A stretch of 64,000 bases of DNA, taken from IMG/VR virus record IMGVR_UViG_3300010430_000013, positions 1 to 64,000 of that record; one strand, 5' to 3'. The position numbers and the translations under genes were made by a program. This document shows positions 10,402 through 60,954 of the stretch, piece by piece (positions within the stretch are counted from its first letter, which is position 1; each line of letters starts with the position of its first letter). The notes under the pieces were generated by a model that did no database searches, had not been told where the DNA came from, and was given only the letters and a program-made list of their open reading frames with translations. Source of the stretch: a virus.

Positions 10402-11103
10402 CATCTTACACAAAAATCCATAAAAATAGGCAACAAAATCAGGAAAATTGTCCTGTGTCCACCAGACTTTAAGGAGTCATATTATCGAAAACACGTAGAA
10501 CTTAGCAACCTATTCGAAGAAAACCCGTTCTGTGAGTATGTACATTGCAGAATTGGAAGATCCGTCATCAGTAATGCCAAGCCCCACATAGGGTTTACCT
10601 TTACCCTTAAGATGGATTTAAAAAACTTCTTCTACAATATTACTGTAGACTCACATGGACAATACATCCCCAAAGAATATCATAGATTTGTGTTTTATCG
10701 GGGTAGAGTTCCACAGGGCTTACCGACGAGTCCTTCTGTTGCCAATCTAGCTTTTGCTGTTTGCGACAAGCAGATAGCAGAATTTTGCAAAAAGAAAAAA
10801 GTTATTTATACTAGATACTGTGACGACCTGAGCTTTTCATTTAACGACTATACTTTGGCTGACCAGCTAAAGAAAAAAGTTTCAGATATTGTTTCTGGCG
10901 AGGCTCACAAGATCAACACCCGAAAAACCAAGTTGCTTTACGCAAAGGCAGGCCGTAGAATAATCTGCGGAGTTGGCGTTGGAGAAACTAAGCTGCACGC
11001 CACCAGAAAGTCTAAGCGTAACTTACGAACCTACAAGAAGAATGGGCAAGAGCTTGCAGCCCAAGGAATGCAGGCTTGGATTAACTACTGCGAAAGCGAA
11101 TAA
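10399..11103 (+). CDS. Retron-type reverse transcriptase (minimal, 234 aa)
   Basis: NAKPH (retron NAxxH), MDLKNFF, PQGLPTSP.VAN, YTRYCDDLSFS (YxDD), INTRKTK, ICG at the VTG position. Confidence 0.9.
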   Translation: MHLTQKSIKIGNKIRKIVLCPPDFKESYYRKHVELSNLFEENPFCEYVHCRIGRSVISNAKPHIGFTFTLKMDLKNFFYNITVDSHGQYIPKEYHRFVFYRGRVPQGLPTSPSVANLAFAVCDKQIAEFCKKKKVIYTRYCDDLSFSFNDYTLADQLKKKVSDIVSGEAHKINTRKTKLLYAKAGRRIICGVGVGETKLHATRKSKRNLRTYKKNGQELAAQGMQAWINYCESE

Positions 11104-21166: not shown

Positions 21167-22063
21167 CTAAGCTAGATCTAGAGATCTAGATAATTTGTTC
21201 TCAATTTTTGAGTTATATGGAATCTCGATATAACCAATGTTATTATCTAAGCACCAGTCTTTTTTTATCTTATCTCTTCTTTTTCTTGCCTTAAATTCGG
21301 CTTGTCCGCCAAAGTATGCCACTGGCATATAGTGTTGTCGTCCGTGGTACTCGATTACTGTATTGAAGTCAGGTAAATAAAAATCAAACCTTAAGGAGAT
21401 TTTATCAATACACCCTTTGAATTTTTTTTGAGTTTCAAACCTTATTCCTTTTTTAGTTAAAATTTCTGAGATCTTAAGTTCTCCTCTAGAAAAATTGCAT
21501 TGAGGGCATCCTCTTCCATGAAGATGGTTATTGGCATTTTGACTAAAAGGCCCGTGTTCGGGACAAACGATTTCTATTTTGTTGTTCACTCCACAAAAAA
21601 TAGATTCTGAGTAATCGTATTTTTCTCCATGAATTTCTTTAGCCTTTTTAACAAAATGATCTTTGTCAACTCTTCTCGTGTCGTAAAAACACCACCTACA
21701 ACCATCTTTATATAAATGATTTTTTGGTTTCACCATAAAGTCACCATGAATTGGGCATGTGACTGCAACTTCTGTCACTGAGTTTTTATAATCAACGTTT
21801 TCATAGGAGTATTTATTGCCATGTTTTTCTATTGCTTTTGCTATGAACTCTTCTTTTGAATAGTGGGCATTTTCCTTAATGCAGCAAGGACACCCTGTGA
21901 TACCAATTCTATTGCTGTATGGGATTTGCTCGAACCATACGTCATGTTTGATGCACTTTATTGAGATTTTATCTCTACAACTTTTGTAATTAGATTCGTC
22001 ATACTCAAATTTTCCGCCAGTTTCCTTAAAACATCTTTGTATATATTTGTTTTTGTATTTCAT
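21167..22063 (-). CDS. Putative homing endonuclease: DUF723-like repeats plus PD-(D/E)XK nuclease
   Basis: Repeats KHGNKYSY..V.Y/CPIHGDF/CPEHGPF..GRGCPQC; SRGE, LRFDFYLP, IEYHGRQHY, RDKIKKDWC. Confidence 0.8.
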   Translation of the reverse strand: MKYKNKYIQRCFKETGGKFEYDESNYKSCRDKISIKCIKHDVWFEQIPYSNRIGITGCPCCIKENAHYSKEEFIAKAIEKHGNKYSYENVDYKNSVTEVAVTCPIHGDFMVKPKNHLYKDGCRWCFYDTRRVDKDHFVKKAKEIHGEKYDYSESIFCGVNNKIEIVCPEHGPFSQNANNHLHGRGCPQCNFSRGELKISEILTKKGIRFETQKKFKGCIDKISLRFDFYLPDFNTVIEYHGRQHYMPVAYFGGQAEFKARKRRDKIKKDWCLDNNIGYIEIPYNSKIENKLSRSLDLA

Positions 22064-24096: not shown

Positions 24097-26310
24097 ATGA
24101 AAAAAGCCCTAATCACAGGCGTAACAGGACAAGACGGTTCCTACTTGGCAGAGCTTCTCCTTGAGAAGGGATACGAAGTTTACGGAATGATTCGTCGAGC
24201 TAGCACGAGCAATACGTCCCGCATTGACCATATTAATGATAAAAATTTTTCTATTTTATATGGCGACTTGGCGGATCAGGCCAGCTTGACGGGTTTGGTT
24301 GGTGCTGTCAAACCTGATGAAATCTATAACTTGGCGGCTCAGTCGCATGTGGGAGTTTCCTTTAAGGTTCCAGAATACACAGCAGATGTGACTGGCGTGG
24401 GGCCTTTGCGGTTGCTTGAAGCAGTTCGATTGAACGGCTTGTGTGGGCACACTCGCTTTTATCAGGCTTCTACTTCCGAACTTTTCGGAAAGGTTCAAGA
24501 AGTTCCGCAAAGTGAAACTACTCCGTTCTACCCGAGGAGCCCGTATGGGGTAGCTAAGTTGCACGCCCACTGGAGCGTAATCAACTACAGAGAAGCACAC
24601 AATATGTATGCGTGTAGTGGAATTTTATTTAATCATGAGACTTTATCTTATGGAACTCCAATTATTATCAAAAAAGATGAAGAATTAGATATTCTACCCA
24701 TAGGGGATGTTGCCAGATTTCATACTGGGGTGTTATTCAATATGGAAAAAGACTACCAGGAGGGAAAGCCTATTTCAGATATAAAAATATGGGACCAGTC
24801 TGGATGGGTCGACATTTCTTGGGTGTCAGGATATCCGCATAAAGGTGATAAAAAACCCAGAATAGTGAATGCCAGAAACTCTGTTTACATGGCCACAGGA
24901 AGTCATCCATGTATCATGGAAGATAACTCCGAAAAAAATACAGAGAATTTAAAAGTGGGGGATAAGGTAAAAAATATATCTTACCCGCCTGTTACGAAAG
25001 CTAAAGATGTTTCTTTAGAAGAAGCCGAGTGGCTTGGAATGCTGGTGGGAGACGGAAACCTTAAAGGCAATGCTCCAATATTTACAAATAAAGACCCAAA
25101 AATTAAAAAAAAGTTTGCCGATTTATGGGTTGCATTTACTGGCGGCGAATACAAATATCGAGATAGTTTTTCTGCATTTAACAATGAGCCTGTAGGACAA
25201 GTTTCATGTTATGGTAAATCAGATTTAGAGTATGACATCTATACGAGTGATATAAGTCCATTTGGACATAAAAATAAAAAAGTTCCAATGAAAATATTGA
25301 ATGGATCATTAGATGTAATGGAAGCTTTTTTAGTTGGATACAATTCTTGCGATGGACTAAAATCTAATAAATGCACTTATCGATTTAAGAATTTTAAAAC
25401 AAATTCACCAACTCTAGCCTCGGGTCTTTTGTTTTTAGTATCCAAAGTAACTGGGCAAAAATACAATATCACAGTAGAAGATTCGCTTAAGTGGGGAAAG
25501 CGTCAGCAATATTATTCTATTAATCTTCTCTCGGATCAAGAAACCTCTTTAGAGAAGTATAATGAAGTTAAGGGTCTGTTAGATAAAAATATTTTCATAA
25601 GAAAAATTCACAGAGATACTGGGATAAGCAGAAAATTTATACAAAAAGTTAAATCCGGCTATATTCCAACTAATGAACACGTACTCAAAAAATGTTCAAA
25701 TGAAATTAAAAAAATAATAGACATACCAGATTACTCTGGATGGTTTTTTGATTTAGAAACATCCAGTGGCACATTTCATGCTGGAATTGGGCAGGGAGTA
25801 GTCCATAATTCCCCTCGTCGCGGTGAGAACTTTGTGACTAGGAAAATTACAAAAGCCCTATGTAATGTAGCCAAAGGTGATCTAGCTTATCTCCACATTG
25901 GCAACATGGACGCCAAAAGAGACTGGGGACATGCTCGTGACTATGTAAGAGGAATGTATCTGATGCTCCAGCAGGATTCCCCAGAAGACTACGTTCTAGC
26001 CACAGGAGAACAGCACAGCGTCAGAGAATTCATCGAACTAGCCGCTTTAGAGTTAGGAATTGAGATTGGCTGGACAGGCAAAGGACTTAGTGAAGAGGGG
26101 TATGTTAAAAGACTGTTCGACACAAAATATGGAGATCCACCACTTGTAGAAGACGAAGTCATTGTGGTTGTTAATGAAGAGTTCTATCGACCGACCGAAG
26201 TCGATACCTTGTTGGGCGACCCCAGCAAAGCCAAGAAGGAACTCTCTTGGTATCCTCAGGTTTCATTTAAATCCCTCGTCTCTGAAATGGTGGAAGCCGA
26301 CTATGACTAA
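24097..26310 (+). CDS. gmd: GDP-mannose 4,6-dehydratase containing an intein
   Basis: [69 protein letters not shown]. Confidence 0.95.
24640..25809 (+). mobile_element. Intein (390 aa) with LAGLIDADG-like endonuclease in Gmd
   Basis: Interrupts FNHE|SPRR; starts TLSYGTPI; block B TGSH; WLGMLVGDG and [10 protein letters not shown]; ends FFDLET..VVHN followed by Ser. Confidence 0.9.
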
Positions 26311-26488
26311 CGATAGTCAAGGATATGGAGCAGGAACATGTTTTAGATCTGGCCATGCGTTTGTTAAGATTTATGATAAGTCATACGGGGAAGCTGTGGG
26401 TGGACATGAGCCTACTTTTTTTAAAAGTATTGGATTTGGAACTAAAAACATCCTCATGATAAAAAAGCTTCTACTAAATAAAAAGTGA
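26303..26488 (+). CDS. Dispersed, degenerate Gly-rich mini-protein
   Basis: [11 protein letters not shown] resembles GHGMCFRSG and GYCFKTG in array members. Confidence 0.4.
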
Positions 26489-26524
26489 ACTCATTTTACA
26501 ATCTAGCCAACTGAGCTAAATACC

Positions 26525-26743
26525 ATGACCAGACCATATCGGGCGGTGATTGTCCTTGAGACTGACGACGGCTGGTGTGCAGCGGTCGCGGAATATGAGT
26601 CAGAGGAACTGTATTACGAGTGTTGCAGCGGTGGTGAGTCATTCCCTGTGCCAGAAAGCGAAATCATGACAACCTGCAGACACCGTCACAGGTCGCCTGC
26701 GTCGTGTAGGCGATGTTGCTTACGCATGCAGAAGACGCTCTAG
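26525..26743 (+). CDS. Cassette 1: Cys/His-rich hypothetical protein
   Basis: Stop TAG lies inside the repeat; CRHRHRSP..CRRCC. Confidence 0.65.
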   Translation: MTRPYRAVIVLETDDGWCAAVAEYESEELYYECCSGGESFPVPESEIMTTCRHRHRSPASCRRCCLRMQKTL

Positions 26744-26784
26744 CCAACTGAGATAGGAAACCAAACGGAAGGAAACGAAACCAA

Positions 26785-27486
26785 ATGTTTAACCCAGAAA
26801 CCGGAAAACGAATCCACCTCACTCACGGAGCAGGCAACGGCGTGGATAAAGCCTGCTTAATTACCGCTTCCAACATGCTGATTGGTCGCGGACAAGACGG
26901 CGACAACAATAGTTGCGTCTGCCCTGTCCTGCGGAAATTCATTATCACTACCAACGACTCGATGCCCGAAGATTTGCTCAGCGAACTCTACGGTCCACTC
27001 GCATGGGAAATCCTTGGCACCGCAACCGGTGACCCTGCAACCGAACAGCAGCGTGCGTATCGCTTTGTGGACTGGGCGGTGCGGGAGATTACACCAATAG
27101 CATTAAGGGCATCAGGGATGGGTGACCACGCATCAAAGCTGAAGGCGCTGTCGCCAGTGGTAGACCAGCAGACCGCCCGTGCCGTCGCCCGTGCCGCCAG
27201 TGCCGCCCGTGTCGCCCGTGCCGCCGCCCGTGCCGCCGATGCCGCCTATGCCGCCGCCGCCGTCGATGCCGCCGTCGATGCCGCCGTCGATGCCTCCGCT
27301 TATGCCGCCGCCCGTGCCGCCGCCCGTGCCGCCGCCAGTGCCGCCCGTGCCGCCCGTGCCGCCGATGCCGAATTGATCTGGCGAAAGTGCCCTGACATTA
27401 TCCGCGAGGTAGCTGCGATTGGGGACAGGCGACCTGTTGAGACTGTAATTGACCACTGCGATTTAGCAGCCGCTCTAGCCGACTGA
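26785..27486 (+). CDS. Cassette 2: phage protein with Ala-rich repeat
   Basis: ACLITA..SCVCPVLRKF...ND motif; (AAR/AAVD)n tract; stop TGA inside the repeat. Confidence 0.7.
   Translation: MFNPETGKRIHLTHGAGNGVDKACLITASNMLIGRGQDGDNNSCVCPVLRKFIITTNDSMPEDLLSELYGPLAWEILGTATGDPATEQQRAYRFVDWAVREITPIALRASGMGDHASKLKALSPVVDQQTARAVARAASAARVARAAARAADAAYAAAAVDAAVDAAVDASAYAAARAAARAAASAARAARAADAELIWRKCPDIIREVAAIGDRRPVETVIDHCDLAAALAD
27172..27370 (+). repeat. GCC-rich coding tandem repeat (GCCGCCCGT and GCCGCCGTCGAT units)
   Basis: Directly visible; encodes an Ala-rich helix. Confidence 0.85.
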
Positions 27487-27516
27487 GCTAGTTAACTAAC
27501 CAGAAGGGAAATTGAA

Positions 27517-27774
27517 ATGGAACATCACGAAAAAGCAAACGAGCAGGAAGAACGTATCAAAGCACTCGAACAGATTGCGAGGCGATACCAATTCTTGCTT
27601 TCGCAATTCCAAATGCACTCGCCCGACATGGCTGGAGCGACTCGCTACCGGTTCCGCAATGGTGGCTGGCCTATGACACATTTTTGCGGCCCGACCATCG
27701 AGGCGGCGATTGATAATGCGATGTCGGAAGTAGAGCGGGAAAAAAAAGACACTCTAGCCAACGGAGCTAATTAA
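27517..27774 (+). CDS. Cassette 3: hypothetical protein
   Basis: Reads through a repeat copy with TGA>GGA and stops just after it; GPTIEAAIDNAM motif. Confidence 0.65.
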   Translation: MEHHEKANEQEERIKALEQIARRYQFLLSQFQMHSPDMAGATRYRFRNGGWPMTHFCGPTIEAAIDNAMSEVEREKKDTLANGAN

Positions 27775-27775
27775 C

Positions 27776-27874
27776 ATGAGAATGATTGCAATTGAACTTA
27801 TTTGTGCCGGATTGCTGATGGCTCTTGGGGTAGTCAAGTTAATCGAAATCATACACGACGCTCTAGCCAACTGA
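27776..27874 (+). CDS. Cassette 4: 32-aa single-helix membrane peptide
   Basis: MRMIAIELICAGLLMALGVVKLIEIIHDALAN*, stop TGA inside the repeat. Confidence 0.55.
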   Translation: MRMIAIELICAGLLMALGVVKLIEIIHDALAN

Positions 27875-27900
27875 GCTACACAACCAAGAGGTAATAAAAA

Positions 27901-28104
27901 ATGAACAAAATGCAATTGCAAAAGATTTCGAGCGACGTGTTCACGGTCAGCGTTGGCTGCGTGTCTATGGCGGTAGAGCTAGACAGCGATGACGAGAGGC
28001 ATCGTCTCGTACTGCGAGACATGGTCGACGCATATAACGATGCCATTGAGTTTCGGACAGCCAAGGAACGGCATGCCGAATCACAATACAACAATACGCT
28101 ATAG
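27901..28104 (+). CDS. Cassette 5: hypothetical protein
   Basis: GAGG SD; stop TAG inside the repeat. Confidence 0.6.
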   Translation: MNKMQLQKISSDVFTVSVGCVSMAVELDSDDERHRLVLRDMVDAYNDAIEFRTAKERHAESQYNNTL

Positions 28105-28122
28105 CCAACTGAGCTGATAACT

Positions 28123-28329
28123 ATGAGTCGAGAAGAATATAGAAACTTGGAATACGCACTGGGCGGGCGCAAGGCAGCGGATAGGCATATAGCTTCGCGG
28201 TTACGTGAACTGGCGGATATTGTCGAATCAGACGAGTGGCCAGACGTGATTAGCTGGCAAGACGATAGAGAGTTTGAGCCAATGATGACGACGGTAAAGC
28301 TGACGTTGTCACTGCCGCTGGGCGGGTAG
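28123..28329 (+). CDS. Cassette 6: hypothetical protein
   Basis: Stop TAG inside the repeat. Confidence 0.6.
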   Translation: MSREEYRNLEYALGGRKAADRHIASRLRELADIVESDEWPDVISWQDDREFEPMMTTVKLTLSLPLGG

Positions 28330-28379
28330 CCAACTGAGCTAGAAAAAGCTCTAGACAACTAATAAAGGAAACCAAACTT

Positions 28380-28751
28380 ATGTCCAATAACAAACAGCCA
28401 AATAGACACGTCTGGTTCTTCCGCCTTGCAGGTGGAGGAAACCAATGCACTGAATACAGAACTAGTGAAAAAGAAGCCGCGATGCGTCTCTTGCACGACG
28501 AATATGGAGAAACCGCAGTCGATGCTGTTCGGCGGGAGTTGACGTTTTTTGAATACGCTGGACTGCTCCGGTGTAATTACGAGGGGTACGGGCGGCAGGT
28601 GTATCAAGCGTTGCAGGACTTCTTTTTTCGGTGCGACCCGCGAGGACATAAGGGCTTTGACGACGAGACGTTAATCCGGTCGCAGTCCGACATCCAAGCA
28701 GGCAGGGTGCTGTCCACGGAGGAATACCTTGAGGACTTAAGGAAAGACTAA
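28380..28751 (+). CDS. Cassette 7: hypothetical protein
   Basis: AGGA SD; stop 4 nt before the last repeat core. Confidence 0.6.
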   Translation: MSNNKQPNRHVWFFRLAGGGNQCTEYRTSEKEAAMRLLHDEYGETAVDAVRRELTFFEYAGLLRCNYEGYGRQVYQALQDFFFRCDPRGHKGFDDETLIRSQSDIQAGRVLSTEEYLEDLRKD

Positions 28752-28784
28752 CGTTCTAGCCAAATGAGATAATAAGCATTAAAA

Positions 28785-28822
28785 TGCAAGCGCCGAAGTC
28801 GCCCGCCGCTTGTAGTTTTTTT
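28785..28822 (+). terminator. Probable terminator closing the cassette array
   Basis: GCAAGCG/CGCTTGT stem followed by AG and T7. Confidence 0.45.
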
Positions 28823-28914
28823 ATTGTTGTGCGACCAGGAGATAATTTTATAGGAATTTTTTCTGCGCTCATTCTTTTGTTGTTGACTGAAGTTAAACTC
28901 TAAGGACCATAAAT

Positions 28915-31290
28915 ATGTTAAATATTCTTGCTGCTTTCGGTGTGCTGCTTCTAGCGAGTTTTCCATTGATTGTTGGATACAAGATCATTCGATGGGTTCT
29001 CACAATTGAAAGAAGAATTGATGTAGTGGCTAACGCTATTAACGAAGTGGCTCGCACGCAGATGGCCTCAAGCCCTGCGCTGGCTATTTCATCTGAAACG
29101 TCTGAAACTCAAATGGGCTTTGTCCAAGGAACCTACCATGAAGAAGATGGGAATTCATAATTTCCTGCTATTGGTCTATTTATTTCTGTTTCTCTTTGCG
29201 GTGTTTGTGCCGCTCGGCATTTGGAAACTTTTGGAGATTTTATTCTGATGCCCAGCTATGAACTTGGTAGAGCCACCATTGATTATATTTCTGGTAAAAA
29301 TTCTGATCCATGCGATAATTGCGGTACCACTCATGCAACAATGTATTCTGTTGGACTAGCGAAATCGCCTGGAGAAGAAAAGAACATTTCCTGGACCCTT
29401 TGTGTTACTTGTAGATCCCACCTAGAAGGCGTATTTAATGAGCACACAGAGGACTGGGATTCAATCTTCTATTAAGTTGAGGTGAAATGATAGACTTAAT
29501 AAACGCAATAGCTATTGTTGTATTGGTATTCTATTGCTTTTATTGGCTACTTTGGATTAGTAAGGTTGAAAAATACATTGACTCTAAGGAAAAAGAGAAT
29601 GGACAATAAACTAGTCATCACTACAAAAGCGTACAGCGAATTAACCTATATTTTGAGGGAGCTGGTAGATGAAATACATGAATCACGCAGATGCTATCTT
29701 GTAGATGCTTTAAAAAAACTAGATGATGAGATTTACACAACAAATCAAGAGGCATGGCAAAATTTTTAATCCATATTCTGATAACAGCTGGCCTTCAATA
29801 ATCATAGCCCTCGCTTTAGTTGCGCTTTTATGTGGGTGGCTAATATATTCTCAAGAGAAACCAAAAGGTCCAATCATTCAAACTTGTGAGATGTGTGGGT
29901 CTGAATGGGAAGTATATCCTAGAGACCCAAACAGGCCAGTCCCATCCACTGTGGAATGGTGCTTTAATGATGGGTCATACTGTGAAGAAGGTTTCAAGAT
30001 GATTATCGAATCAATGGAACACGGAGAAACTCCTGAACAAAATGTTCAATGGATCAATCATTGTATGAGGTGTAAGGGCTGTAGGTGTGCCGCATTTAGT
30101 CCTGAAAGGTGGAAAGAACTAATGGAAGCTTTGGAGAGAATCTAATGGAATTTTTTATATTTCTGATATTATGGCTAGCGGCTGTCGCGATAGTGTTTAT
30201 CATGTACTTCATAATGTATGACATGAACAGAAGATTTTCAAGGAATGGCTTCCGTAGTTAATTATGAATTAATTGAGATGCAAAAATGAGTAACTATATT
30301 GGACTTCAACTTAGAGTTTCTAGAAAATTTCTTTTTATCCCCAGGAAAGTAGGAAAAAGGCTTATGTGGCTTCGCTGGGTTAAAGAAGTAAATTTTTGGT
30401 TTGATCCTCACAATTGCTGCATCCCTAGGTGGGCTCATGTTTGTTTCTACGTACCGAAGTATCTAAGGATAAATAATGATTGAGTTTCTAACTTTTTTTG
30501 GTGGAATGTCACTGGTGATGCTCGGTATCGTGGGTGTGTTTTTTACAATACATTTCATCTGTGAGACTTACGATTGGAGAAACAAGACAAAGAACCAAAT
30601 TTCGGATCTTCAGTCAAGGGTACAAGAACTTGAAAACAAGGAACAGTAATGCATCACATAACATGCGGCGAATATTGGATTAATTACAATTCAGATTTTA
30701 GTGGTGACCTCCACATTAGAAAAGATGATTTTTTTGTAAAGCTTCCTATGGAACTTTTCGAAGCTATAGTTGCCCAAAAAATTCGAACTGAAATGATTAC
30801 AACTTTAGAGAATGCTGATAATCAAACAATTCTTTATGGGAAGAACCATGAAAAATAACGATATGCTGGTCAAAATGCCATGAGTTTCAGTGAAGAAATT
30901 TTAGCACACACAGCAAAAGATGGTCTACTTTCTGTAGAAGAGAAATTTTTATTTCTGCCTAAAAAAATAGATGGTAAATTTTACTGGTTAAGAAAAGTCA
31001 AAATGCTATCGTTTTCAGTGGTTTTGGACGTACGGTTCAGAAAATTATCAATTTTATTACATTCCTAAATACATTAAATTACCATGAGAGTATATGAACC
31101 CGGAACAACCGTATTTATTGGAGATGGTACCATTCAAGGAGAGCTTTTGAAGGTGTGTATATGCAATGAAAATTACGTTAAATATCAGGTCGTTTGGTGG
31201 AATGGCGGGGAAAGAAAAGTAAAGTGGTTAGATTATAGGGAAATTCATACTAACTATAACAGCGAAACCATTAGAATAGACTACGAATAA
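28915..31290 (+). other. Run of small hypothetical phage ORFs, several membrane-anchored or Cys-rich
   Basis: 28915-29160, 29221-29475, 29515-29769, 29723-30145, 30286-30483, 30649-30858, 30880-31068, 31084-31290. Confidence 0.55.
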
Positions 31291-47019: not shown

Positions 47020-47988
47020 ATGAAAATTTCGGAACTAGTAAAAAAGATTACTTTCTCTTTTGAAGAGTTTGAGGCTATGCAAGGCGAAAAGCCAATTGTA
47101 AGTCTTAGTCCTACATTTAATTCAATTTGCGGAGGCATTAAAGGCGGCTCGTTTGTTTTGATGGGTGGACCACCTAAATGCGGTAAAACAATTACCTGTC
47201 TAGACTTTGCTGCACGCGCCCAGCAAGCTGGATATACAGTGCTTTATCTTAATTCAGAAGGAAGACTCGCCGTAAGAGATATCAAGGGCTGCAAAAAACT
47301 TGACTATTCGGTAGAAAAGTTTAAATTGATTACTTCTACCACTGAGAACAAAGTTTCTGCGGAGCAATATCTAGGCTCTGTACTTCATTACATGGAAACC
47401 GAAGAACGCTTGTTTGTTATTGCGGACTCTCTTAGCCATATGGAAGCAGAGAAACAGCTTAACGATGCAACTTGCGACCTTACAAGAGATGCCTCTCCAA
47501 GAATCATGTCTCAATTCTGCAAGAAGCTGGCTCCATACATCAGCTCAAGTGACCACATTTTTCTAGGCGTTGTCCATTTAATTGCCAATACTTCTGGTTA
47601 TGGAAAATCCGTAGTAGAAGGAGGAGGCAATAAAATTCAATATGCTGCTGATATTAAGCTTCGTCTAAAAAATTACGAACCTATGACGAATGCTGATACC
47701 TATAGGGACAGGGAATACGGTCGTAAAATTAACTGGATTTGCGAAACGTCTAACATGGGCTTCCCGAAGATGGAAGGAACGTCTTATGTTATCCTTGGAG
47801 AGGGCATTGACGACATTGCTGAGCTTTTGCCCATTGCACTGGAAACTGGCGTAATGAGCAAGGGGGGAGCGTGGTATAATTATGGAGAGCAAAAGTTTCA
47901 AGGAGAGAAAAAGACTATCGAAGCACTGCGCGACAATCCAGAAATGTACAAAGAAATTAAAGATGAAGTAGAGGCAAGACTAGCATAA
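47020..47988 (+). CDS. recA: RecA/UvsX-like recombinase
   Basis: GGIKGG, GPPKCGKT, YLNSEG, IADSL, GGNKIQYAAD, KGGAWYNY...KFQG. Confidence 0.9.
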   Translation: MKISELVKKITFSFEEFEAMQGEKPIVSLSPTFNSICGGIKGGSFVLMGGPPKCGKTITCLDFAARAQQAGYTVLYLNSEGRLAVRDIKGCKKLDYSVEKFKLITSTTENKVSAEQYLGSVLHYMETEERLFVIADSLSHMEAEKQLNDATCDLTRDASPRIMSQFCKKLAPYISSSDHIFLGVVHLIANTSGYGKSVVEGGGNKIQYAADIKLRLKNYEPMTNADTYRDREYGRKINWICETSNMGFPKMEGTSYVILGEGIDDIAELLPIALETGVMSKGGAWYNYGEQKFQGEKKTIEALRDNPEMYKEIKDEVEARLA

Positions 47989-54451: not shown

Positions 54452-54832
54452 ATGGCTAACTCTTACAATCACTCGGTTCTGGTCGGCAACGTTGTTCGTG
54501 ATACGGAAATTCGCGATGCCGGAAAGTCTAAGGTAGCAGACAATGCTATCGCCATTACGGAGACTTTCGGGGAAAAGGAAGTAACAACATTTGTTGACAT
54601 TACTCTTTGGGGACGAAATGCTGAAACGTTTCAGAAGTTCTGCCCTAAAGGTCGCACGGTCTTGATTGAAGGCTCTCTTCGTCAAGACAAGTGGACAGAC
54701 AACGACGGCAACAAACGTTCTAAAATGTTTGTTAATGTCGACCGATTTGTTCTTTTAGGCTCAAAGCCTGGCGGTGGTCAGCAGCAGGAAACTGTTGCGG
54801 CAGGAGCAGGCTCGGATGATCTCCCCTTCTAA
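54452..54832 (+). CDS. ssb: Single-stranded DNA-binding protein
   Basis: LVGNVVRD.E, FVDITLWG..AE, IEGSLRQDKW...DG.KRSK, C-terminal DDLPF. Confidence 0.95.
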   Translation: MANSYNHSVLVGNVVRDTEIRDAGKSKVADNAIAITETFGEKEVTTFVDITLWGRNAETFQKFCPKGRTVLIEGSLRQDKWTDNDGNKRSKMFVNVDRFVLLGSKPGGGQQQETVAAGAGSDDLPF

Positions 54833-54863
54833 GCCTCCCTCTCGCTTAGAAGGCACTTCGATG

Positions 54864-54896
54864 CGCCTGCGTGCTCGTAGCACGCAGGCGTTTTTT
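54864..54896 (+). terminator. Intrinsic terminator
   Basis: Perfect 12-bp stem CGCCTGCGTGCT/AGCACGCAGGCG followed by T6. Confidence 0.85.
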
Positions 54897-54914
54897 ATTC
54901 TTTTGGAGTTGTTT

Positions 54915-56420
54915 ATGTATCACCCCGGCGTAATGACTCACGGCTCTGTTTTGCAAAGTGCAGTACACCCGGAGCATATTCAGGATTTTATCAATAATTC
55001 TGACTACTCCATGCTGCCAATCCTTGACTGGAATCTTAGTCAGGCTTACCCGTATATAGACTCGACCGAACAACCTGTAATCGGTCTATTGAAAAACTTT
55101 ACACAAGATAATGTTGAGATAACCTGCGCCCTCTATGCCCTCAATCGAAAGGGGTTTGGCGAGCTGCTCAGAATATCCAACGGGCTCCCAATTGCGGATA
55201 ATTGCAAGAATATTGCAGCACTCTCGCCGGAAGCTTTAAATATCCCGGATCTTGAAGATATTGACCTGCATATCAAGACATTCAATCCTATAGCCCCAGC
55301 GCTCGTTCTAAGGGACTCTCAGCTTGATCACCATAAGGTACTCATTAACAAAGCAAAAGGCGAATACGACGCGCCTGTGCCCCTAGAAAACGATGTTACC
55401 GATTGGTCTTGTTTAGCGCCGCTTTATGAGGCCGTAGAGAAATACAGTTTGGACAACAATCCTAGGCTTCCTCACTTTCCAACGGGAGACAAAACTGAAG
55501 ACGAATTTCTCCGCGAACTCTGCGTTAAATCCTTAAAAGATAAAAATTTAGAGAGTGAAATATACCTTAGCCGTTTAAATTATGAGCTACAGACGTTCGA
55601 AAACGCCGGAATGAGTGGTTATTTCCTAATTATGTGGGATATTTGCCGCTTTATTCAGGAGAGTGGCTCTATGTTGGGGGCTGGTCGTGGGTCTGCTGCG
55701 GGTTGTTTAGCGAGTTATCTGCTGGGCGTTACTAAAGTTGACCCGATTAAGTACGACCTAATCTTCGAAAGATTCTATAATCCTGACCGAAAGGGCGTAC
55801 CCGATATCGATTGCGACATTGTGCCGGAATTTAGACCTAAAGTTATTGATTATTTAAGAGACAAGTATGGTTCCGAGAAAGTTGCACAGCTTTGCACTTA
55901 CACTACTTTTAAAGGTCGAGGAGCCCTCAAAGAAACCCTAAAGCAACACGGAATGTCGCACGCAGAGGCAAATAAGGTAACTGAATGCCTTCATGAAGAA
56001 TCTAAAATTGATCCACAGCTCAAAGACCAGTATAATTCATTAGGGACTAAAAGTGTGCTTCTGTACACTTTAATGCATAGTCGAAGACTCGATTTCTGGT
56101 GTAAATTTAATAGGAAGACAAGTAAATACACTGGTAAGTGGGCGGATGCCTTCAAACTGGCAGTTGAGATGGACAGAACTAATATTGCAATTGGCAAACA
56201 CGCTTCGGCTTTTATTCTGTCAGATAGAAATTTGCTAGATCAGTGTCCTGTTATACCAGATCCGGCCAACGGGCCTCACCCAGTTTGTGGCTGGGAAATG
56301 AATGCGGCAGAAAGATCAGGTTTGGTTAAGTTGGATTTGTTGGGACTGGACTGCTTGTCTAAATACCAAAGAAGCAGAGAAGTCATATCTAGTAAATCAA
56401 TCTACTTGGAGGCCATATAA
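54915..56420 (+). CDS. dnaE: DNA polymerase III alpha, N-terminal half (reduced PHP plus palm)
   Basis: RLNYEL, GYFLIMWD, GAGRGSAAG, FERFYNPDR...PDIDCD, GKHASA, GLVKLDLLGL; GGAG SD. Confidence 0.9.
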   Translation: MYHPGVMTHGSVLQSAVHPEHIQDFINNSDYSMLPILDWNLSQAYPYIDSTEQPVIGLLKNFTQDNVEITCALYALNRKGFGELLRISNGLPIADNCKNIAALSPEALNIPDLEDIDLHIKTFNPIAPALVLRDSQLDHHKVLINKAKGEYDAPVPLENDVTDWSCLAPLYEAVEKYSLDNNPRLPHFPTGDKTEDEFLRELCVKSLKDKNLESEIYLSRLNYELQTFENAGMSGYFLIMWDICRFIQESGSMLGAGRGSAAGCLASYLLGVTKVDPIKYDLIFERFYNPDRKGVPDIDCDIVPEFRPKVIDYLRDKYGSEKVAQLCTYTTFKGRGALKETLKQHGMSHAEANKVTECLHEESKIDPQLKDQYNSLGTKSVLLYTLMHSRRLDFWCKFNRKTSKYTGKWADAFKLAVEMDRTNIAIGKHASAFILSDRNLLDQCPVIPDPANGPHPVCGWEMNAAERSGLVKLDLLGLDCLSKYQRSREVISSKSIYLEAI

Positions 56421-56632
56421 TGGCAGATTCTATTACATATGGTCAGTTGACGGTTGGCCAGAAATATACTCTCGTTAATGGAGAGGACACAGATACAATT
56501 TGGCTTAAAATCAAAACTCAAACAAAAGGCTGCTGCCGTAATCGAAAGGTTGTGGCGAATGCTCGTAATTCTGTGGATGCTACTAAAACAGCAATCCATA
56601 AACCAAGCGATAAGGTCGTGGTTGTCGGTTAA
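56420..56632 (+). CDS. Hypothetical protein
   Basis: TAATG coupling with GGAGG SD. Confidence 0.55.
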   Translation: MADSITYGQLTVGQKYTLVNGEDTDTIWLKIKTQTKGCCRNRKVVANARNSVDATKTAIHKPSDKVVVVG

Positions 56633-56661
56633 TCAATAAAAGATAAATTGATTCTTTTTTG

Positions 56662-56701
56662 AACCCGCTGACTGACCTATAGGCTTTTGGCGGGTTTTTT
56701 T
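56662..56701 (+). terminator. Probable terminator
   Basis: AACCCGC/GCGGGTT stem followed by a T tract. Confidence 0.55.
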
Positions 56702-56723
56702 ACTTCTTAAATAAGGATTTATT

Positions 56724-56927
56724 ATGGCTAGATTTGACTGGGTTCCTTTTGGTGAGCAATTCCGATTTGAGGGGGATATGTTCAAAAAGATAGATTTCGA
56801 TACCGCTGAGAATATGTTCACAGGCGACTTTCAGCGTTTTGACTCGATGCAGCAAGTAGAGTACGAAGACTACGAAGAAGAAGCGATGGACGTATTCGCG
56901 CTTGATGACGATAACTTGGACTGGTAA
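56724..56927 (+). CDS. Small acidic hypothetical protein
   Basis: AAGGA SD; D/E-rich C-terminus. Confidence 0.55.
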   Translation: MARFDWVPFGEQFRFEGDMFKKIDFDTAENMFTGDFQRFDSMQQVEYEDYEEEAMDVFALDDDNLDW

Positions 56928-56931
56928 TCTT

Positions 56932-57723
56932 ATGAAGAAAGTATGCGGCAAGTGCAAGACAGAGAAGCTCACGGAGGAGTTTTACAAAAATAAGTCAACG
57001 AAAGACGGCTATGCTGGTTGTTGCAAGTCTTGCCACACGTCATACTTAGACGCATACAAACAAAGAAATATAAAGATACCAGAAGAAAAAACTTGTTATA
57101 AATGTAAAAAGACAAAATCCAAAGACTGCTTTAGTAAAATGAAGCAAGCTAAGGACGGCTTACAGCAATCATGCAAAGAGTGTTGTAAAAAATACAAAGA
57201 GTCTCTAAAGAATAGAGAAGATAAAGCTGAATCAAAAGCATGCCCAAGTTGTAAGGTTCTTTTAAGTTCTTCCGAATTTAATTCTTTTTGTTATAGCGCT
57301 GACGGACTTTCTGTCTATTGTAAAGAGTGTACAAAAAAGAAAAAAACAGAATATCTTCCAGTAAGACGAAAAAGGAAAAAATTTAGATATGATAATGACG
57401 TTCAATACAAAATAAAAGACTCCTTAAGAAAAAGAATTCGCGTTGCCCTTAAAGGTAAAGCAAAATCAAAAGCCACAATAGCTCTTTTGGGGTGCTCCGT
57501 AGATTTTTTAAAAACATATCTAGAAAATAAATTTGAATCTGGAATGACGTGGGAGAATTACGGAATTGATGGTTGGCACATAGATCATATAATTCCTTGT
57601 TCTGCATTCGACTTAACTGATCCAGAGCAACAAGGGCTTTGTTTTCATTACACGAACCTTCAGCCTTTATGGGCTGAGGACAACATTAAAAAAAGCAACT
57701 CACTGAATTGGAGAAAAAGATGA
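56932..57723 (+). CDS. HNH-type endonuclease with N-terminal Zn-finger repeats
   Basis: Three K.C..CK..K....F......DG....CK.C repeats; GMTWENYG, WHIDHIIP, CFHYTNLQPLW..DN..KSN. Confidence 0.8.
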   Translation: MKKVCGKCKTEKLTEEFYKNKSTKDGYAGCCKSCHTSYLDAYKQRNIKIPEEKTCYKCKKTKSKDCFSKMKQAKDGLQQSCKECCKKYKESLKNREDKAESKACPSCKVLLSSSEFNSFCYSADGLSVYCKECTKKKKTEYLPVRRKRKKFRYDNDVQYKIKDSLRKRIRVALKGKAKSKATIALLGCSVDFLKTYLENKFESGMTWENYGIDGWHIDHIIPCSAFDLTDPEQQGLCFHYTNLQPLWAEDNIKKSNSLNWRKR

Positions 57724-58421
57724 TTTTAGTTACGGATTTGGAGACAATAGACTTAAATAAAAATAAGGTTTCTCATGAGACTGCAATTCCCGTACAACTT
57801 GCGGCCATCCCTCTGGATGAGAATTCTCTGGAGATTATCGACGACCCTCTGTGTATGTGGATTAATCCTGGCGAAGAAATACTTAATTCACCGTCCTTTT
57901 ATCAAGATTACTCAAATGTTTTGGCCTTTCATGAAAAAGCACAAGGTAAACCAAAAGAGGAACTTGTCGAACTCTGGCGCTCAGGATTGGCCACGAGAGA
58001 CGCGATGAAAGAATTTAAGGATTACGTTAAGTCTTATACCAAGGGCTCAAAAAAAGCATATTTTGGAGGTATGAACGTCAGAAATTTCGACATACCTATT
58101 CTAGAGCGTTTAATCGACAAAGGCTGGCCCTTTGCTAAAGTTAAGACTTGGGATATTAGAGACGTTGCCCAAATGTGGTTCGAATATTCTCGCAACCCAC
58201 CTAAGTTGAACGGTAGAGTCAGCTATAGCTTCGACTCTTTGCGTCAATACTTTGATATGAGCACAGAGAATGCTCACGACGCCCTTGTTGACGTTAGGCA
58301 AGAAGCAGACCTGCTCAGAAGATTTTTACGACTTCAGAAGAACCTAATGACTTACGGTTATCAACACAGAGACCAAAAGGCATTTGCTTGGGCTAAAGTT
58401 CTTCATGGAGTTAAGTCTTGA
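57720..58421 (+). CDS. DnaQ/DEDDh 3'-5' exonuclease
   Basis: TDLET, N.RNFDIPIL, WDIRD, AHDALVDV. Confidence 0.85.
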   Translation: MILVTDLETIDLNKNKVSHETAIPVQLAAIPLDENSLEIIDDPLCMWINPGEEILNSPSFYQDYSNVLAFHEKAQGKPKEELVELWRSGLATRDAMKEFKDYVKSYTKGSKKAYFGGMNVRNFDIPILERLIDKGWPFAKVKTWDIRDVAQMWFEYSRNPPKLNGRVSYSFDSLRQYFDMSTENAHDALVDVRQEADLLRRFLRLQKNLMTYGYQHRDQKAFAWAKVLHGVKS

Positions 58422-59014
58422 GCTTAGGCGATAAGATTAAAGCGCTAAGAAATAAAGGATATTCTTACAACGAAATAGCAAAAGAGCTTGGTTGCTCTAA
58501 AGGCACTGTTTCGTATCATTGTGGAGAGGGTCAAAAGGATAAGGCAGAAGCCAGAAGAAAAAAACGAAGGAAAGAAAAGCCTGTCGACAGAAAGGTTGAA
58601 AATTTTCATGCTGAGAGAACATCATCCTTTGAACAATCTATTGTTAGAAATAATAACGAAAGAATTTCAGGGAAGATAGCGCTTTTTCATAGTTGTGGGA
58701 GTAGAATGAAAACTAAATATACACCAAGAACCTTCAGCGTGAGCGAAGCAAAAGAACTACTAGAAGAACGAGGAGTTTGTTATTTGACTGGAGATCCAAT
58801 CGACCCAGAAGACAGTCAATCTTATCATTTTGATCACATTAAGCCAAGGTCCGCAGGGGGAGAAAATACAATCGATAATTTAGGAATTTCTTCACCAGAG
58901 GCTAATTATGCCAAGGGAAGCATGGAATTTGAGGACTTCATAAAAATGTGTCATAAAATAGTGAAGAGATATCCTGATCCAGAAGACCCAAGACCAAAAC
59001 ACGAAAGGGGCTGA
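58418..59014 (+). CDS. HTH plus HNH endonuclease
   Basis: GYSYNEIAKELGCSKGTVSYH; CYLTG, FDHIKPRSAGG.N..DNL......N.AKG. Confidence 0.8.
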   Translation: MSLGDKIKALRNKGYSYNEIAKELGCSKGTVSYHCGEGQKDKAEARRKKRRKEKPVDRKVENFHAERTSSFEQSIVRNNNERISGKIALFHSCGSRMKTKYTPRTFSVSEAKELLEERGVCYLTGDPIDPEDSQSYHFDHIKPRSAGGENTIDNLGISSPEANYAKGSMEFEDFIKMCHKIVKRYPDPEDPRPKHERG

Positions 59015-59142
59015 AATAGTTTCGATTCGAAGTCAAGTGATGCGTCTGCCGTGGGAGGCAAAAAGGTCTAACTGCACTAGCAAAAAAGCCTTGGCGTTAT
59101 CAGCAGCTTTTGAAGACCTCGGGGCAGGACCGAGCAGCTCCA
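59007..59142 (+). ncRNA. ssrA: Minimal tmRNA-like RNA (136 nt)
   Basis: Acceptor stem GGGGCTG/CAGCTCC with G3-U70 and discriminator A; 5' GGGGCTGA..TTCGA; T-arm CTCGG-GGCAGGA-CCGAG preceded by GAC; helix 2 TTCGAA..TGATGCGTC / GGCGTTATCA..TTTGAA; CCA not encoded. Confidence 0.75.
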
Positions 59143-59162
59143 CTTTTTTCAAAGGAGAAGCA

Positions 59163-59366
59163 ATGGGTGAATTTTTTGTAGAGGCCATTTTTGGCATGAT
59201 AGTGTCTGCGGTTATTGTAACCGCGCTTGTTGTGGGAGGAGTTACGTTTGCCGTGACTTGGTATTTCAGTCAACCTCCTTCAGAAGCTCAAGTCTTAAAA
59301 GAAGGGCAACGACAACAAGTTATCGAAAAACTTACACCTGAAGAACGAGAATTGCTGGGCGTTTAA
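59163..59366 (+). CDS. Small membrane protein
   Basis: AGGAG SD; hydrophobic N-terminal half; C-terminal KLTPEERELLG. Confidence 0.65.
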   Translation: MGEFFVEAIFGMIVSAVIVTALVVGGVTFAVTWYFSQPPSEAQVLKEGQRQQVIEKLTPEERELLGV

Positions 59367-59367
59367 T

Positions 59368-60954
59368 ATGATTTTTGATTGTGGGTGCGAATTTCACCAA
59401 ACAGAAGACGGCGGCTGGACTTGGGACGACGAGAATATTAATTTTCAATGTCCAAAAGTTTGGAGGTTAATTTGTTCTGGCAATACGTCTGGCGTCTTTC
59501 AGCTGGACGCTATGCTGGGTCAACATTGGTCCAGGCAGGTCAAGCCAGAAAACATTAATGAATGGTCTGATCTTATTGCTATTATCCGTCCTGGTATGCT
59601 GGAAGCTATCGTGGACGGAAAGAGCCAGACTCAGCGCTATGTTGACAGAAAACACGGCAAAGAGAGTGTCGCGTTCGACCATCCAAAGCTAGAGGAGGTT
59701 CTAGGACCAACTCAAGCTACCATGCCGTTTCAAGAGCAAGCCATGAGAATCGCCACAGACTTGGCGGGGTTCACAATGGCCGAGTCGGATACTTACATTC
59801 GCAAGGGTATCGGCAAGAAGATTCCTGAGGTGATTGCCAAAGCCAAGGAAATGTTCATCGAGGGATGCCTCAAGAATAATATCTCCAAAGAATTAGCCGA
59901 AAGAATCTTTACGTCTATCGAGGCTGCACAGCGATATTCGTTCAATAGGTCACACAGTCTTAGTTACGCTCTGGATGGTTATATTTATTCAGCATATATC
60001 AAAGCGCATTTTCCGCTGGAGTTTCATTGCACAGAATTAGACTTTGCTAAGGGCAAGCAGCCTAAGACTGACCTTGAGGCCGTCTGTGACATCATCGAGG
60101 ATGCCCTAAAGATGGACATCAAGGTTATGAAACCCGACCTTAGATATTTAAATGAAAGATTTTCTATAGTTGACGGCACCATCCTTTACGGCTTAACTAA
60201 GATAAAGCATCTCGGTCCCGATAAAATTCGAGCACTTCCAGAGCTGAAAGACGCTACTTACATAGAGCTTATCGCTGCCTTAGACAAAATAAACAAAACT
60301 TCCGCAGAAAACTTAATCAAAAGCGGGTCTTGTGATTGGATCAAAGCGCCTCGTTCTAAAATGTTGGCAGACTATGCGGCTTACTCCAAGCTAAATGTGC
60401 AGCAAAAAGAAGTTTGTGTAGAAGAATCTGACGTTCTTAAGGGAATTCAAAAAATTATAGAAATTGGGCCGTCCACCAAGAGCAAGCTGTGCTATAATAA
60501 AGTGTCGCTAAAAAAATTAAAGGAACTTGAGAATCTCCTCGTGAATCCAATCCGACAGCCAAAAGACACCCCTCAAAAGATTATTGACTGGGAAAAGGAA
60601 ACACTTGGGCGCTCATTTACTTTTGATGAGGCTTTGACTCGTTATTGGGATGGGAATTACAAAGAGTTGATTGATGTTAAGCATCATTCTGTCCCCCTAA
60701 AAGATCAATTCCTGTTGAGCGCGGTTCTCAGGGACTTTAAAGAAATTTACACCAAGAAAAAACAAGAACCTATGGCTCGAATAACTGTTTACAGTTTAGA
60801 TTGGGTCAGTGATGCGGTTATATTTCCTAGGGCTTGGGAATTGTGCAAGCATGCGATTGAATCTAATGTCGGCCAGCCGCTTTTATTCAAAGCCAGAATG
60901 AATTTCTACAACGAGCAATGGGGCCTAGTAATCGAGGAGATAGAAGATGTCTAG
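59368..60954 (+). CDS. dnaE: DNA polymerase III alpha, C-terminal half (fingers, HhH, OB)
   Basis: G.TSGVFQL, IAIIRPG, FQEQAM.IA..LAGF, RKGIGKK, YSFNRSHS.SY, YIKAHFP.EF, YGLTKIK, WEKETLG, MA.IT..VIFP. Confidence 0.9.
   Translation: MIFDCGCEFHQTEDGGWTWDDENINFQCPKVWRLICSGNTSGVFQLDAMLGQHWSRQVKPENINEWSDLIAIIRPGMLEAIVDGKSQTQRYVDRKHGKESVAFDHPKLEEVLGPTQATMPFQEQAMRIATDLAGFTMAESDTYIRKGIGKKIPEVIAKAKEMFIEGCLKNNISKELAERIFTSIEAAQRYSFNRSHSLSYALDGYIYSAYIKAHFPLEFHCTELDFAKGKQPKTDLEAVCDIIEDALKMDIKVMKPDLRYLNERFSIVDGTILYGLTKIKHLGPDKIRALPELKDATYIELIAALDKINKTSAENLIKSGSCDWIKAPRSKMLADYAAYSKLNVQQKEVCVEESDVLKGIQKIIEIGPSTKSKLCYNKVSLKKLKELENLLVNPIRQPKDTPQKIIDWEKETLGRSFTFDEALTRYWDGNYKELIDVKHHSVPLKDQFLLSAVLRDFKEIYTKKKQEPMARITVYSLDWVSDAVIFPRAWELCKHAIESNVGQPLLFKARMNFYNEQWGLVIEEIEDV

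Follow-up and report, generated by a model that had tools for sequence, protein, structure and literature searches.

Phages acquire and swap many small accessory genes by routes that are partly understood. The closest described route is the PeSL-mediated shuffling of T4-type phages (PMC2839356). PeSLs (promoter-early stem-loops) are short, conserved modules lying between genes, where they border the small ORFans of plastic genome regions (PMC2839356; PMC4122927). They carry an upstream stop plus a downstream start region, coincide with breaks in inter-phage homology, and are proposed to recombine with one another, including via mini-circles. They consist of sigma-70 promoters and strong stem-loop terminators, in ~50 copies genome-wide. 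The PeSL model is based on a few T4-type coliphages and vibriophages.

Integrons hold co-oriented, apparently promoterless single-gene cassettes that each end in a repeat. These attC sites are ~55-140 bp in length; their sequence varies, and what defines them is an imperfect palindrome that folds. The known primer-binding sites of retroelements pair with the 3' end of a tRNA or, for some, with the 3' end of a processed tRNA fragment. Direct repeats formed of tRNA sequence also part the cargo units of tycheposons, which are kilobases long, accrete in tandem at one site, and carry or depend on tyrosine or serine recombinases beside an intact tRNA, with the partial tRNAs being attachment-site copies (bioRxiv 10.1101/2020.12.28.424599). 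Described here is an array of single-gene cassettes in an uncultured phage bounded by a repeat that matches part of a tRNA.

Genome context of the array

The DNA analyzed (the window) is a 64,000 nucleotide stretch covering positions 1 to 64,000 of the IMG/VR virus record IMGVR_UViG_3300010430_000013, which has 89,733 bases and is 59% complete (CheckV). It represents a large phage genome that encodes, among others, a DnaB-like helicase and a primase. Its T4-type traits comprise a UvsX-like recombinase and an rIIA-like protein, inteins, a DNA polymerase in two pieces, and homing endonucleases. The family-B-type polymerase was split into pieces at 54774-56420 and 59368-60954 (region 54774-60954), and the genes lying between them included one for an endonuclease VII/HNH-like protein (56902-57723). 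Three HNH homing-endonuclease genes were found at 385-2794 and 21167-22063, two from one PHROG family, and the ribonucleotide reductase (RNR) gene was intein-bearing as well as gmd. The genome is thus rich in selfish elements, namely the HNH genes and the inteins in Gmd/RNR.

The array formed a 2.3 kb island of raised G+C (26498-28771) between gmd and AT-rich phage DNA. The GC content rose from 0.29 to 0.53 at repeat copy c1 and dropped to 0.38-0.39 past copy c8, such that the island limits coincided with these two copies on the left and right, respectively. GC3 of the island ORFs was 0.45-0.62 (0.53-0.62 omitting the 32-aa o4) versus 0.35-0.44 in seven other genes of the window, and the array is a compositionally foreign island.

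Organization of the repeat and cassettes

The 21-mer given as the cassette repeat in the earlier, sequence-only reading was confirmed on the + strand as copy c5 (Table 1). Allowing for up to three mismatches, the window contained seven matches (c1-c6 and c8), all on the + strand, compared to a mean of 0.00 in 100 dinucleotide shuffles. An eighth copy, c7, was reduced to the core at about 28327-28341 (14-15 nt). Searching the entire 89,733-base record gave eight forward and no reverse matches, with none in a backwards control, and the repeat was restricted to the array and lacking in the remainder of the record. The repeat therefore comprises ~21 nt with a 14-15-nt core, in eight same-strand copies plus one degenerate half copy. 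The seven intervals between copies, corresponding to cassette units of 110-735 bp, each held exactly one + strand ORF of 32-233 aa. In copy c4, through which o3 reads, TGA is replaced by GGA, and the c7/half-copy pair without an ORF may be either an empty unit or a recombination scar.

Table 1. Coordinates of the repeat copies, cassette ORFs, and associated features in the window.
Feature	Position	Strand	Remark
RVT_1-type gene, small reverse transcriptase	10426-10941		
gmd, intein-bearing	24097-26310		Precedes the array
Terminator-like hairpin and T run	26396-26425	+	Between gmd and the array; from a consensus scan in which such sites were not above shuffles in number
Copy c1	26498-26518	+	Left edge of island; 5' flank degenerate
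ORF o1, 72 aa	26525-26743	+	Stop is TAG within c2
Copy c2	26735-26755	+	L141 nucleotide homology begins here (26728)
ORF o2, 233 aa	26785-27486	+	Ala-rich middle; stop is TGA within c3
Copy c3	27470-27490	+	L141 homology stops at final base
ORF o3, 85 aa	27517-27774	+	Passes through c4 to TAA 3 nt past the copy
Copy c4	27749-27769	+	
ORF o4, 32 aa	27776-27874	+	Hydrophobic; stop is TGA within c5
Copy c5	27858-27878	+	Named in the earlier finding; identical to consensus
ORF o5, 67 aa	27901-28104	+	Stop is TAG within c6
Copy c6	28096-28116	+	3' end and next start region like L141 copy b (39 nt, 90%)
ORF o6, 68 aa	28123-28329	+	Stop is TAG within c7
Copy c7	28321-28341	+	Core alone kept
Degenerate half copy	28348-28362	+	25 nt past c7, no ORF between
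ORF o7, 123 aa	28380-28751	+	Real homolog family; TAA abuts c8
Copy c8	28751-28771	+	Right edge of island; 3' half degenerate
Hairpin followed by seven U	28785-28822	+	Terminator-like array end; -16.3 kcal/mol, z -1.0, not significant alone
UvsX-like recombinase	47020-47988		phrog_97, E 6e-36

A consensus scan of 26000-29300 identified two promoter-like sites versus 3.0 in shuffles, one of which was weak and overlapped c8. No stable stem-loop terminator was found within the repeat, and terminator-like hairpins were present only outside the array ends; the hairpin at 28785-28822 was missing from the + strand list of the consensus terminator scan. A weak Rfam match to YrlA overlapped c5 on the minus strand (27825-27938; 17.7 bits versus a gathering score of 69, E 4.8). 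YrlA is a Y RNA-like RNA with a tRNA-like domain, and the match was taken as chance.

Similarity of the repeat to the tRNA D-arm

The sequence-only reading described the repeat as the reverse complement of a tRNA D-arm, and database comparison upheld this far beyond chance. A complete scan of IMG/VR for the 21-mer gave 76 exact matches, 67 of which started at position 8 or 9 of tRNAs from 18 anticodon classes (Ala-TGC 10, Met 9, Val-TAC 9, Asn 8, and others). In these, the reverse complement of the repeat is the sense strand and matches positions 8/9-28 letter-for-letter. The 16-nt core had at least 115 exact matches in at least 114 stretches and, among the matches listed, 101 were inside ARAGORN tRNAs starting at position 8 (94) or 9 (7). 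Specificity was controlled by comparing both strands of the window with the 840 distinct 21-mers at positions 8-28 of 1622 tRNAs. This gave 13 matches with up to two mismatches inside the array (3 exact) and none outside it, confining such D-arm segments to the array in 128 kb of window strands, and three of the window copies each equaled the 8-28 segment of some real tRNA exactly. This D-arm is too generic for a single donor tRNA to be named, and it is also frequent in bacterial Thr, Gly, and Ala tRNAs.

The accompanying claim that no anticodon arm, T-arm, or acceptor stem is present at any copy also held, according to ARAGORN, Rfam, and flank comparison. ARAGORN identified no tRNA genes in the window, the 89.7-kb record, or the contig carrying the second array (L141, below); Rfam showed no tRNA at 25500-30000 with E up to 10; RF00005 matched neither of the two viral records at E up to 1; and no T-arm consensus pattern was present in the 89.7-kb record. 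On both sides of the copies, the flanks resembled real tRNAs no better than shuffled flanks did, such that they contained no tRNA remnant supporting descent and the proposed extension of the 27858 copy to GTGTAGCTCAG was not significant. Lacking the cloverleaf arms, the copies are not a tRNA gene or pseudogene.

The non-tRNA matches in the 21-mer scan were single copies except for L141 and its near-duplicate L165, as were the 14 non-tRNA matches among those listed in the 16-mer scan. By eye, the single matches looked like truncated, intron-bearing, or end-cut tRNA genes. Several viral contigs (L010/L040, L062, L070, L077, L049, and L081) contained isolated tRNA 5' fragments running into unrelated sequence and made up of the acceptor strand and the D-arm, with a few extending as far as the anticodon loop. 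These fragments may be attachment-site remnants or split tRNA genes.

A second array and homology breakpoints at the repeat

A second array with the same consensus was identified on the contig IMGVR_UViG_3300010430_000383 (L141, record G001; 43% complete), which has a GC content of 0.537 and is unrelated to the window phage apart from the array. Its five same-strand copies delimited four intervals with one ORF each on one strand, while a fifth ORF ended in the first copy. Both arrays thereby had an integron-type layout, with seven ORFs in seven intervals in the window and four in four in L141, all on one strand. Exact scans of IMG/VR for the 21-mer, a two-copy pattern, and the repeat plus spacer found only L141/L165 beyond tRNA genes, and the same was true of the 16-mer scan among the matches listed. 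In cellular genomes, tRNA pairs dominated the two-copy pattern among the matches listed, with 72 of 120 loci being Thr-TGT with Gly-TCC.

Comparison of the window phage and L141 by blastn and tblastx identified cassette o2 as their sole substantial similarity and the only cassette common to the two arrays (71% amino-acid identity). Nucleotide homology was 73% over 766 nt, starting 7 nt before c2 and ending on the final base of c3, and the cassettes on either side of o2 were unrelated between the two phages. One spacer that precedes o2 in L141 follows it in the window. In addition, the likeness of c6 to L141 copy b covered the repeat and the opening codons of ORFs that are unrelated beyond that point. 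The comparison comprises two arrays and one shared cassette, too few for mapping crossover points.

An L141-like contig with the same 27-nt spacer was present in the same marine-sediment run as the window. Four joints from this run placed on the window (27878>26785, 28128>27846, 26879>26977, and 27259>27857) fitted one or two L141-like contigs rather than rearrangements of the window phage. Co-occurrence of the L141-like phage explained all of the solid joints, and no recombination product of the window phage was seen among the sediment-run joints; the joint 26733>27515 was left out as its short side had just 21 letters. An empty site was sought through relatives of the neighboring gene (29723-30145), for which no relatives were found.

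Stop codons and conservation of the repeat

Twelve ORFs precede a copy of the repeat (seven in the window and five in L141), nine of which stop within the 14-nt core using TAG (4) or TGA (5) in two different frames. The remaining three stop 3 nt past the copy, abutting it, and 22 nt upstream. Next starts lay anywhere from 6 to 63 nt past the repeat and, combined with the stops in the core, this indicated that the repeat tracks gene ends rather than gene starts. All three frames were closed within 30 nt in 11 of the 13 copies, compared to a background of 1022 of 63,970 (1.6%) 30-nt windows, although the copies share descent and the count does not represent 13 independent events. Variant 3' ends of the copies still spelled a stop in that frame. 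This is suggestive of selection for stop codons in the repeat, and the all-frame stops could also be a by-product of the D-arm sequence.

The repeats flanking o2 were 46/50 identical between the window and L141, compared to 91/165 for third codon positions of o2 (Fisher p 5.6e-7) and 371/495 for all its coding positions (p 0.005). The repeat was accordingly better kept than the o2 codons, suggesting that it is constrained or homogenized. Among the 13 copies, the core held 1.2-2.0 bits per position with nine invariant positions, and the 5' flank was the least conserved (0.6-1.4 bits).

The sequence-only reading expected conservation across homologous arrays to follow the tRNA-invariant positions, and this was not borne out by the two arrays. 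In tRNA numbering, U8 was changed in two copies, A14 in one, and G10 in two, non-invariant loop positions were fully kept, and the 3' strand of the D-stem was the poorest-kept part. D-stem pairs were kept in 71.2% of 52 cells without compensatory changes, a value that all 500 of 500 shuffles reached. No stable or conserved fold was found, with an alifold energy of -1.9 kcal/mol, no compensatory pairs, and single folds at z -1.3 to +1.1. The sole dyad in the repeat had arms of 4-5 bp around a 7-nt spacer that was as invariant as the arms.

Homologs of the cassettes

The cassettes had no PHROG match and no Pfam match at E below 0.05. For o2, the best PDB match was at E 0.085, and the Atlas contained unnamed phage clusters together with a weak Imm5_like lead (score 0.83, 26% of members). 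The large, unnamed o2 family is mostly viral; an E limit of 0.001 gave 2155 representatives and one of 1e-30 gave 32, and no o2 homologs were found in genome contigs. Inside o2, an alanine-rich GCC-repeat stretch (27175-27360) differed in length and sequence among all homologs and is a hypervariable low-complexity linker between two conserved domains. A 200-fold depth spike over this stretch in the sediment run derived from unrelated contigs.

Homologs of o7 were found at seven metagenome loci, and the repeat was present only at L115, which is the same phage. The o7 product has a conserved ~85-aa domain followed by a 28-aa tail that was missing in six of seven homologs, the seventh carrying an unrelated tail of greater length. 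The 3' end of the o7 cassette was probably remodeled on joining to the repeat. Two contigs with o7 homologs, L116 and L117 (790-1960), had small-ORF arrays of their own, including some tandem paralogs, in which a different conserved module of ~18-24 nt, spanning the start codon and its ribosome-binding site, formed the junction. Arrays of small genes of this kind may commonly have conserved junction modules.

Origin and role of the repeat

The explanation put forward here, tentatively, is that the repeat is a probably tRNA-derived junction module that punctuates translation and provides a short patch of homology for cassette exchange of the PeSL type. A D-arm piece would have been captured from a tRNA gene and later become free of the tRNA and of tRNA-type constraints. 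The module would close the 3' end of each single-gene cassette in the co-oriented array, with its stops in all three frames ending whichever ORF is attached and a start region for the following ORF lying downstream. Its copies would also offer shared sequence for excision, insertion, and exchange of cassettes between otherwise unrelated phages, possibly by recombination between copies via mini-circles or double crossovers as for the PeSL motifs of T4-type phages. The encoded UvsX-like recombinase makes recombination at such short homologies plausible. Counting against an exchange role, 21 nt is short for homologous recombination and the o7 homologs in other contigs were not flanked by the repeat. 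Regarding its origin, the D-arm region of a tRNA gene (positions 8-28) on the opposite strand is a likely source, and a fragment of such a gene offers the most parsimonious ancestry.

A site-specific mechanism, in which the core is an att- or integron-like crossover site for a putative recombinase acting in trans, derived from a former attachment tRNA and followed by tandem accretion, is less likely. An att-like site was among the suggestions of the sequence-only reading, and its geometry was supported by the direct repeats that bound each cargo unit. The half-degenerate first and last copies also resemble hybrid att sites, the spacer is as invariant as the arms as expected of an overlap region, a tandem copy pair lacks an ORF (28327-28362), and tycheposon islands document scattered partial tRNAs from tRNA-targeting integrases (bioRxiv 10.1101/2020.12.28.424599). 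However, Phage_integrase (PF00589) and Resolvase were each matched in 0/2 records (59% and 43% complete) and neither end of either array had an intact tRNA in these incomplete records. The inverted arms are also only 4-5 bp, and the similarity at one inter-array junction extended 17 nt beyond the repeat into the next ORF, suggesting variable breakpoints. Finally, tRNA-targeting integrases reportedly use the anticodon loop, T-loop, or 3' end rather than the D-arm. An extended form of this idea is a miniature integron-like system in marine-sediment phages, whereby a putative trans-acting recombinase would move genes of 100-700 bp using a 15-21-bp tRNA D-arm core that doubles as an all-frame stop; this is speculative and unlikely.

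It is similarly unlikely that the repeat is purely an RNA- or protein-recognition element that takes no part in recombination, in arrays built otherwise. Bound by a host or phage factor, it would coordinate cassette expression as an operator or processing site, for instance as the target of a translational repressor or an endoribonuclease wherever one cistron meets the next. Such an element would account for a 14-nt core that is (near-)invariant across the 13 copies of the two unrelated phages and exceeds the neighboring coding sequence in conservation, and for its strict placement on the coding strand, where it separates the cistrons of what appears to be a single transcription unit with a terminator-like end. 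It leaves unexplained why homology limits and island edges lie at copies; furthermore, the repeat had no stable or covarying structure (alifold, as above) and, apart from o2, no candidate factor shared by the two phages is known.

Rather improbable is a coincidental resemblance to the D-arm, with the motif having arisen at the 3' end of an o2-family gene (L-A-D/E-A-L-A) and later reached the remaining junctions. In its 5' flank, the repeat encodes D-A-L-A, matching the native C-terminal pattern of the o2 family (L-A-D/E-A-L). Among 30 o2 homologs compared, the six closest end in repeat-encoded residues and the remoter ones, at 46-55% identity, still have L-A-D/E-A-L, including homologs missing the final N found after A-L-A in the clade that bears the repeat. 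No repeat was present at the 3' end of the two distant homologs for which DNA was available, and the tRNA invariants are not kept in the copies. Part of the motif could therefore stem from the 3' end of the gene, and either this is the case or the joining of the o2 gene and a tRNA fragment was aided by microhomology. Arguing against coincidence, the 21 nt are identical to positions 8-28 of 67 tRNA genes, three copies are exact tRNA segments, and nothing elsewhere in the window came within two mismatches of the 840 segments. In addition, the core is located 3' to the D-A-L-A codons and takes in 4 nt past the TGA that are free of coding constraint. Descent from a tRNA gene was retained as likelier because the invariant core is situated beyond these codons and the stop.

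The sequence-only reading also proposed that mRNA copies pair with a tRNA or tRNA 5' fragment, or prime the phage reverse transcriptase across the upstream ORF, and this is highly improbable: the mRNA-strand copies are perfectly complementary to D-arms common to many tRNAs and the phage has an RVT_1-type gene, but the D-arm is buried in folded tRNA, the primer 3' end would face the least conserved 5' flank, the L141 record (43% complete) had no RVT_1 match, neither record had a tRNA gene, and conservation across both arrays departs from the tRNA-invariant positions.

Comparison with known systems

Similarly to retroelement primer-binding sites, the RNA-strand sequence of the repeat is complementary to part of a tRNA. 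It differs from them in being complementary to an internal stretch (positions 8-28) and in being least conserved at the end where priming would occur. The array shares with tycheposons the cargo units parted by direct repeats that are partial tRNAs and stacked in tandem at a single site, but its units are of 110-735 bp, are situated inside phage genomes, and are bounded by a D-arm fragment with no tRNA or recombinase nearby. As in integrons, the single-gene cassettes share one orientation, apparently lack promoters, and finish in a repeat where the ORFs often stop, and a cassette is common to unrelated replicons. Unlike attC, the repeat is 21 nt, conserved in sequence, and unstructured (-1.9 kcal/mol; single folds not above shuffles), and unlike in integrons, no integrase gene was identified adjacent to the array or elsewhere (PF00589 in 0/2 records, 59% and 43% complete).

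In the literature searched, no phage cassette repeat derived from a D-arm was found to be described. PeSLs resemble the repeat in being short conserved intergenic modules at the junctions of small genes, in combining the stop of one gene with the start region of the next, in the proposed recombination between copies, and in their association with T4-type traits, and the break of inter-phage homology at the motif was reproduced here from repeat to repeat (26728-27490). In contrast to PeSLs, the repeat is shorter, is confined to one 2.3-kb array, has no stable hairpin and no promoter-like hexamer pair beyond the weak match at c8, and is identical to the opposite strand of a tRNA D-arm. The element is a different and much shorter junction that delimits single-gene cassettes in two uncultured phages with no relation in other respects, and it is probably a piece of tRNA sequence in another use that is kept better than the genes it flanks. 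If an exchange mechanism were shown, the repeat would provide a simple sequence tag for mobile phage cassettes in metagenomes (likely accessory or counter-defense genes) and an added case of tRNA-derived DNA serving other than as an integrase target, and it would extend junction-mediated modular shuffling beyond promoter/terminator motifs.
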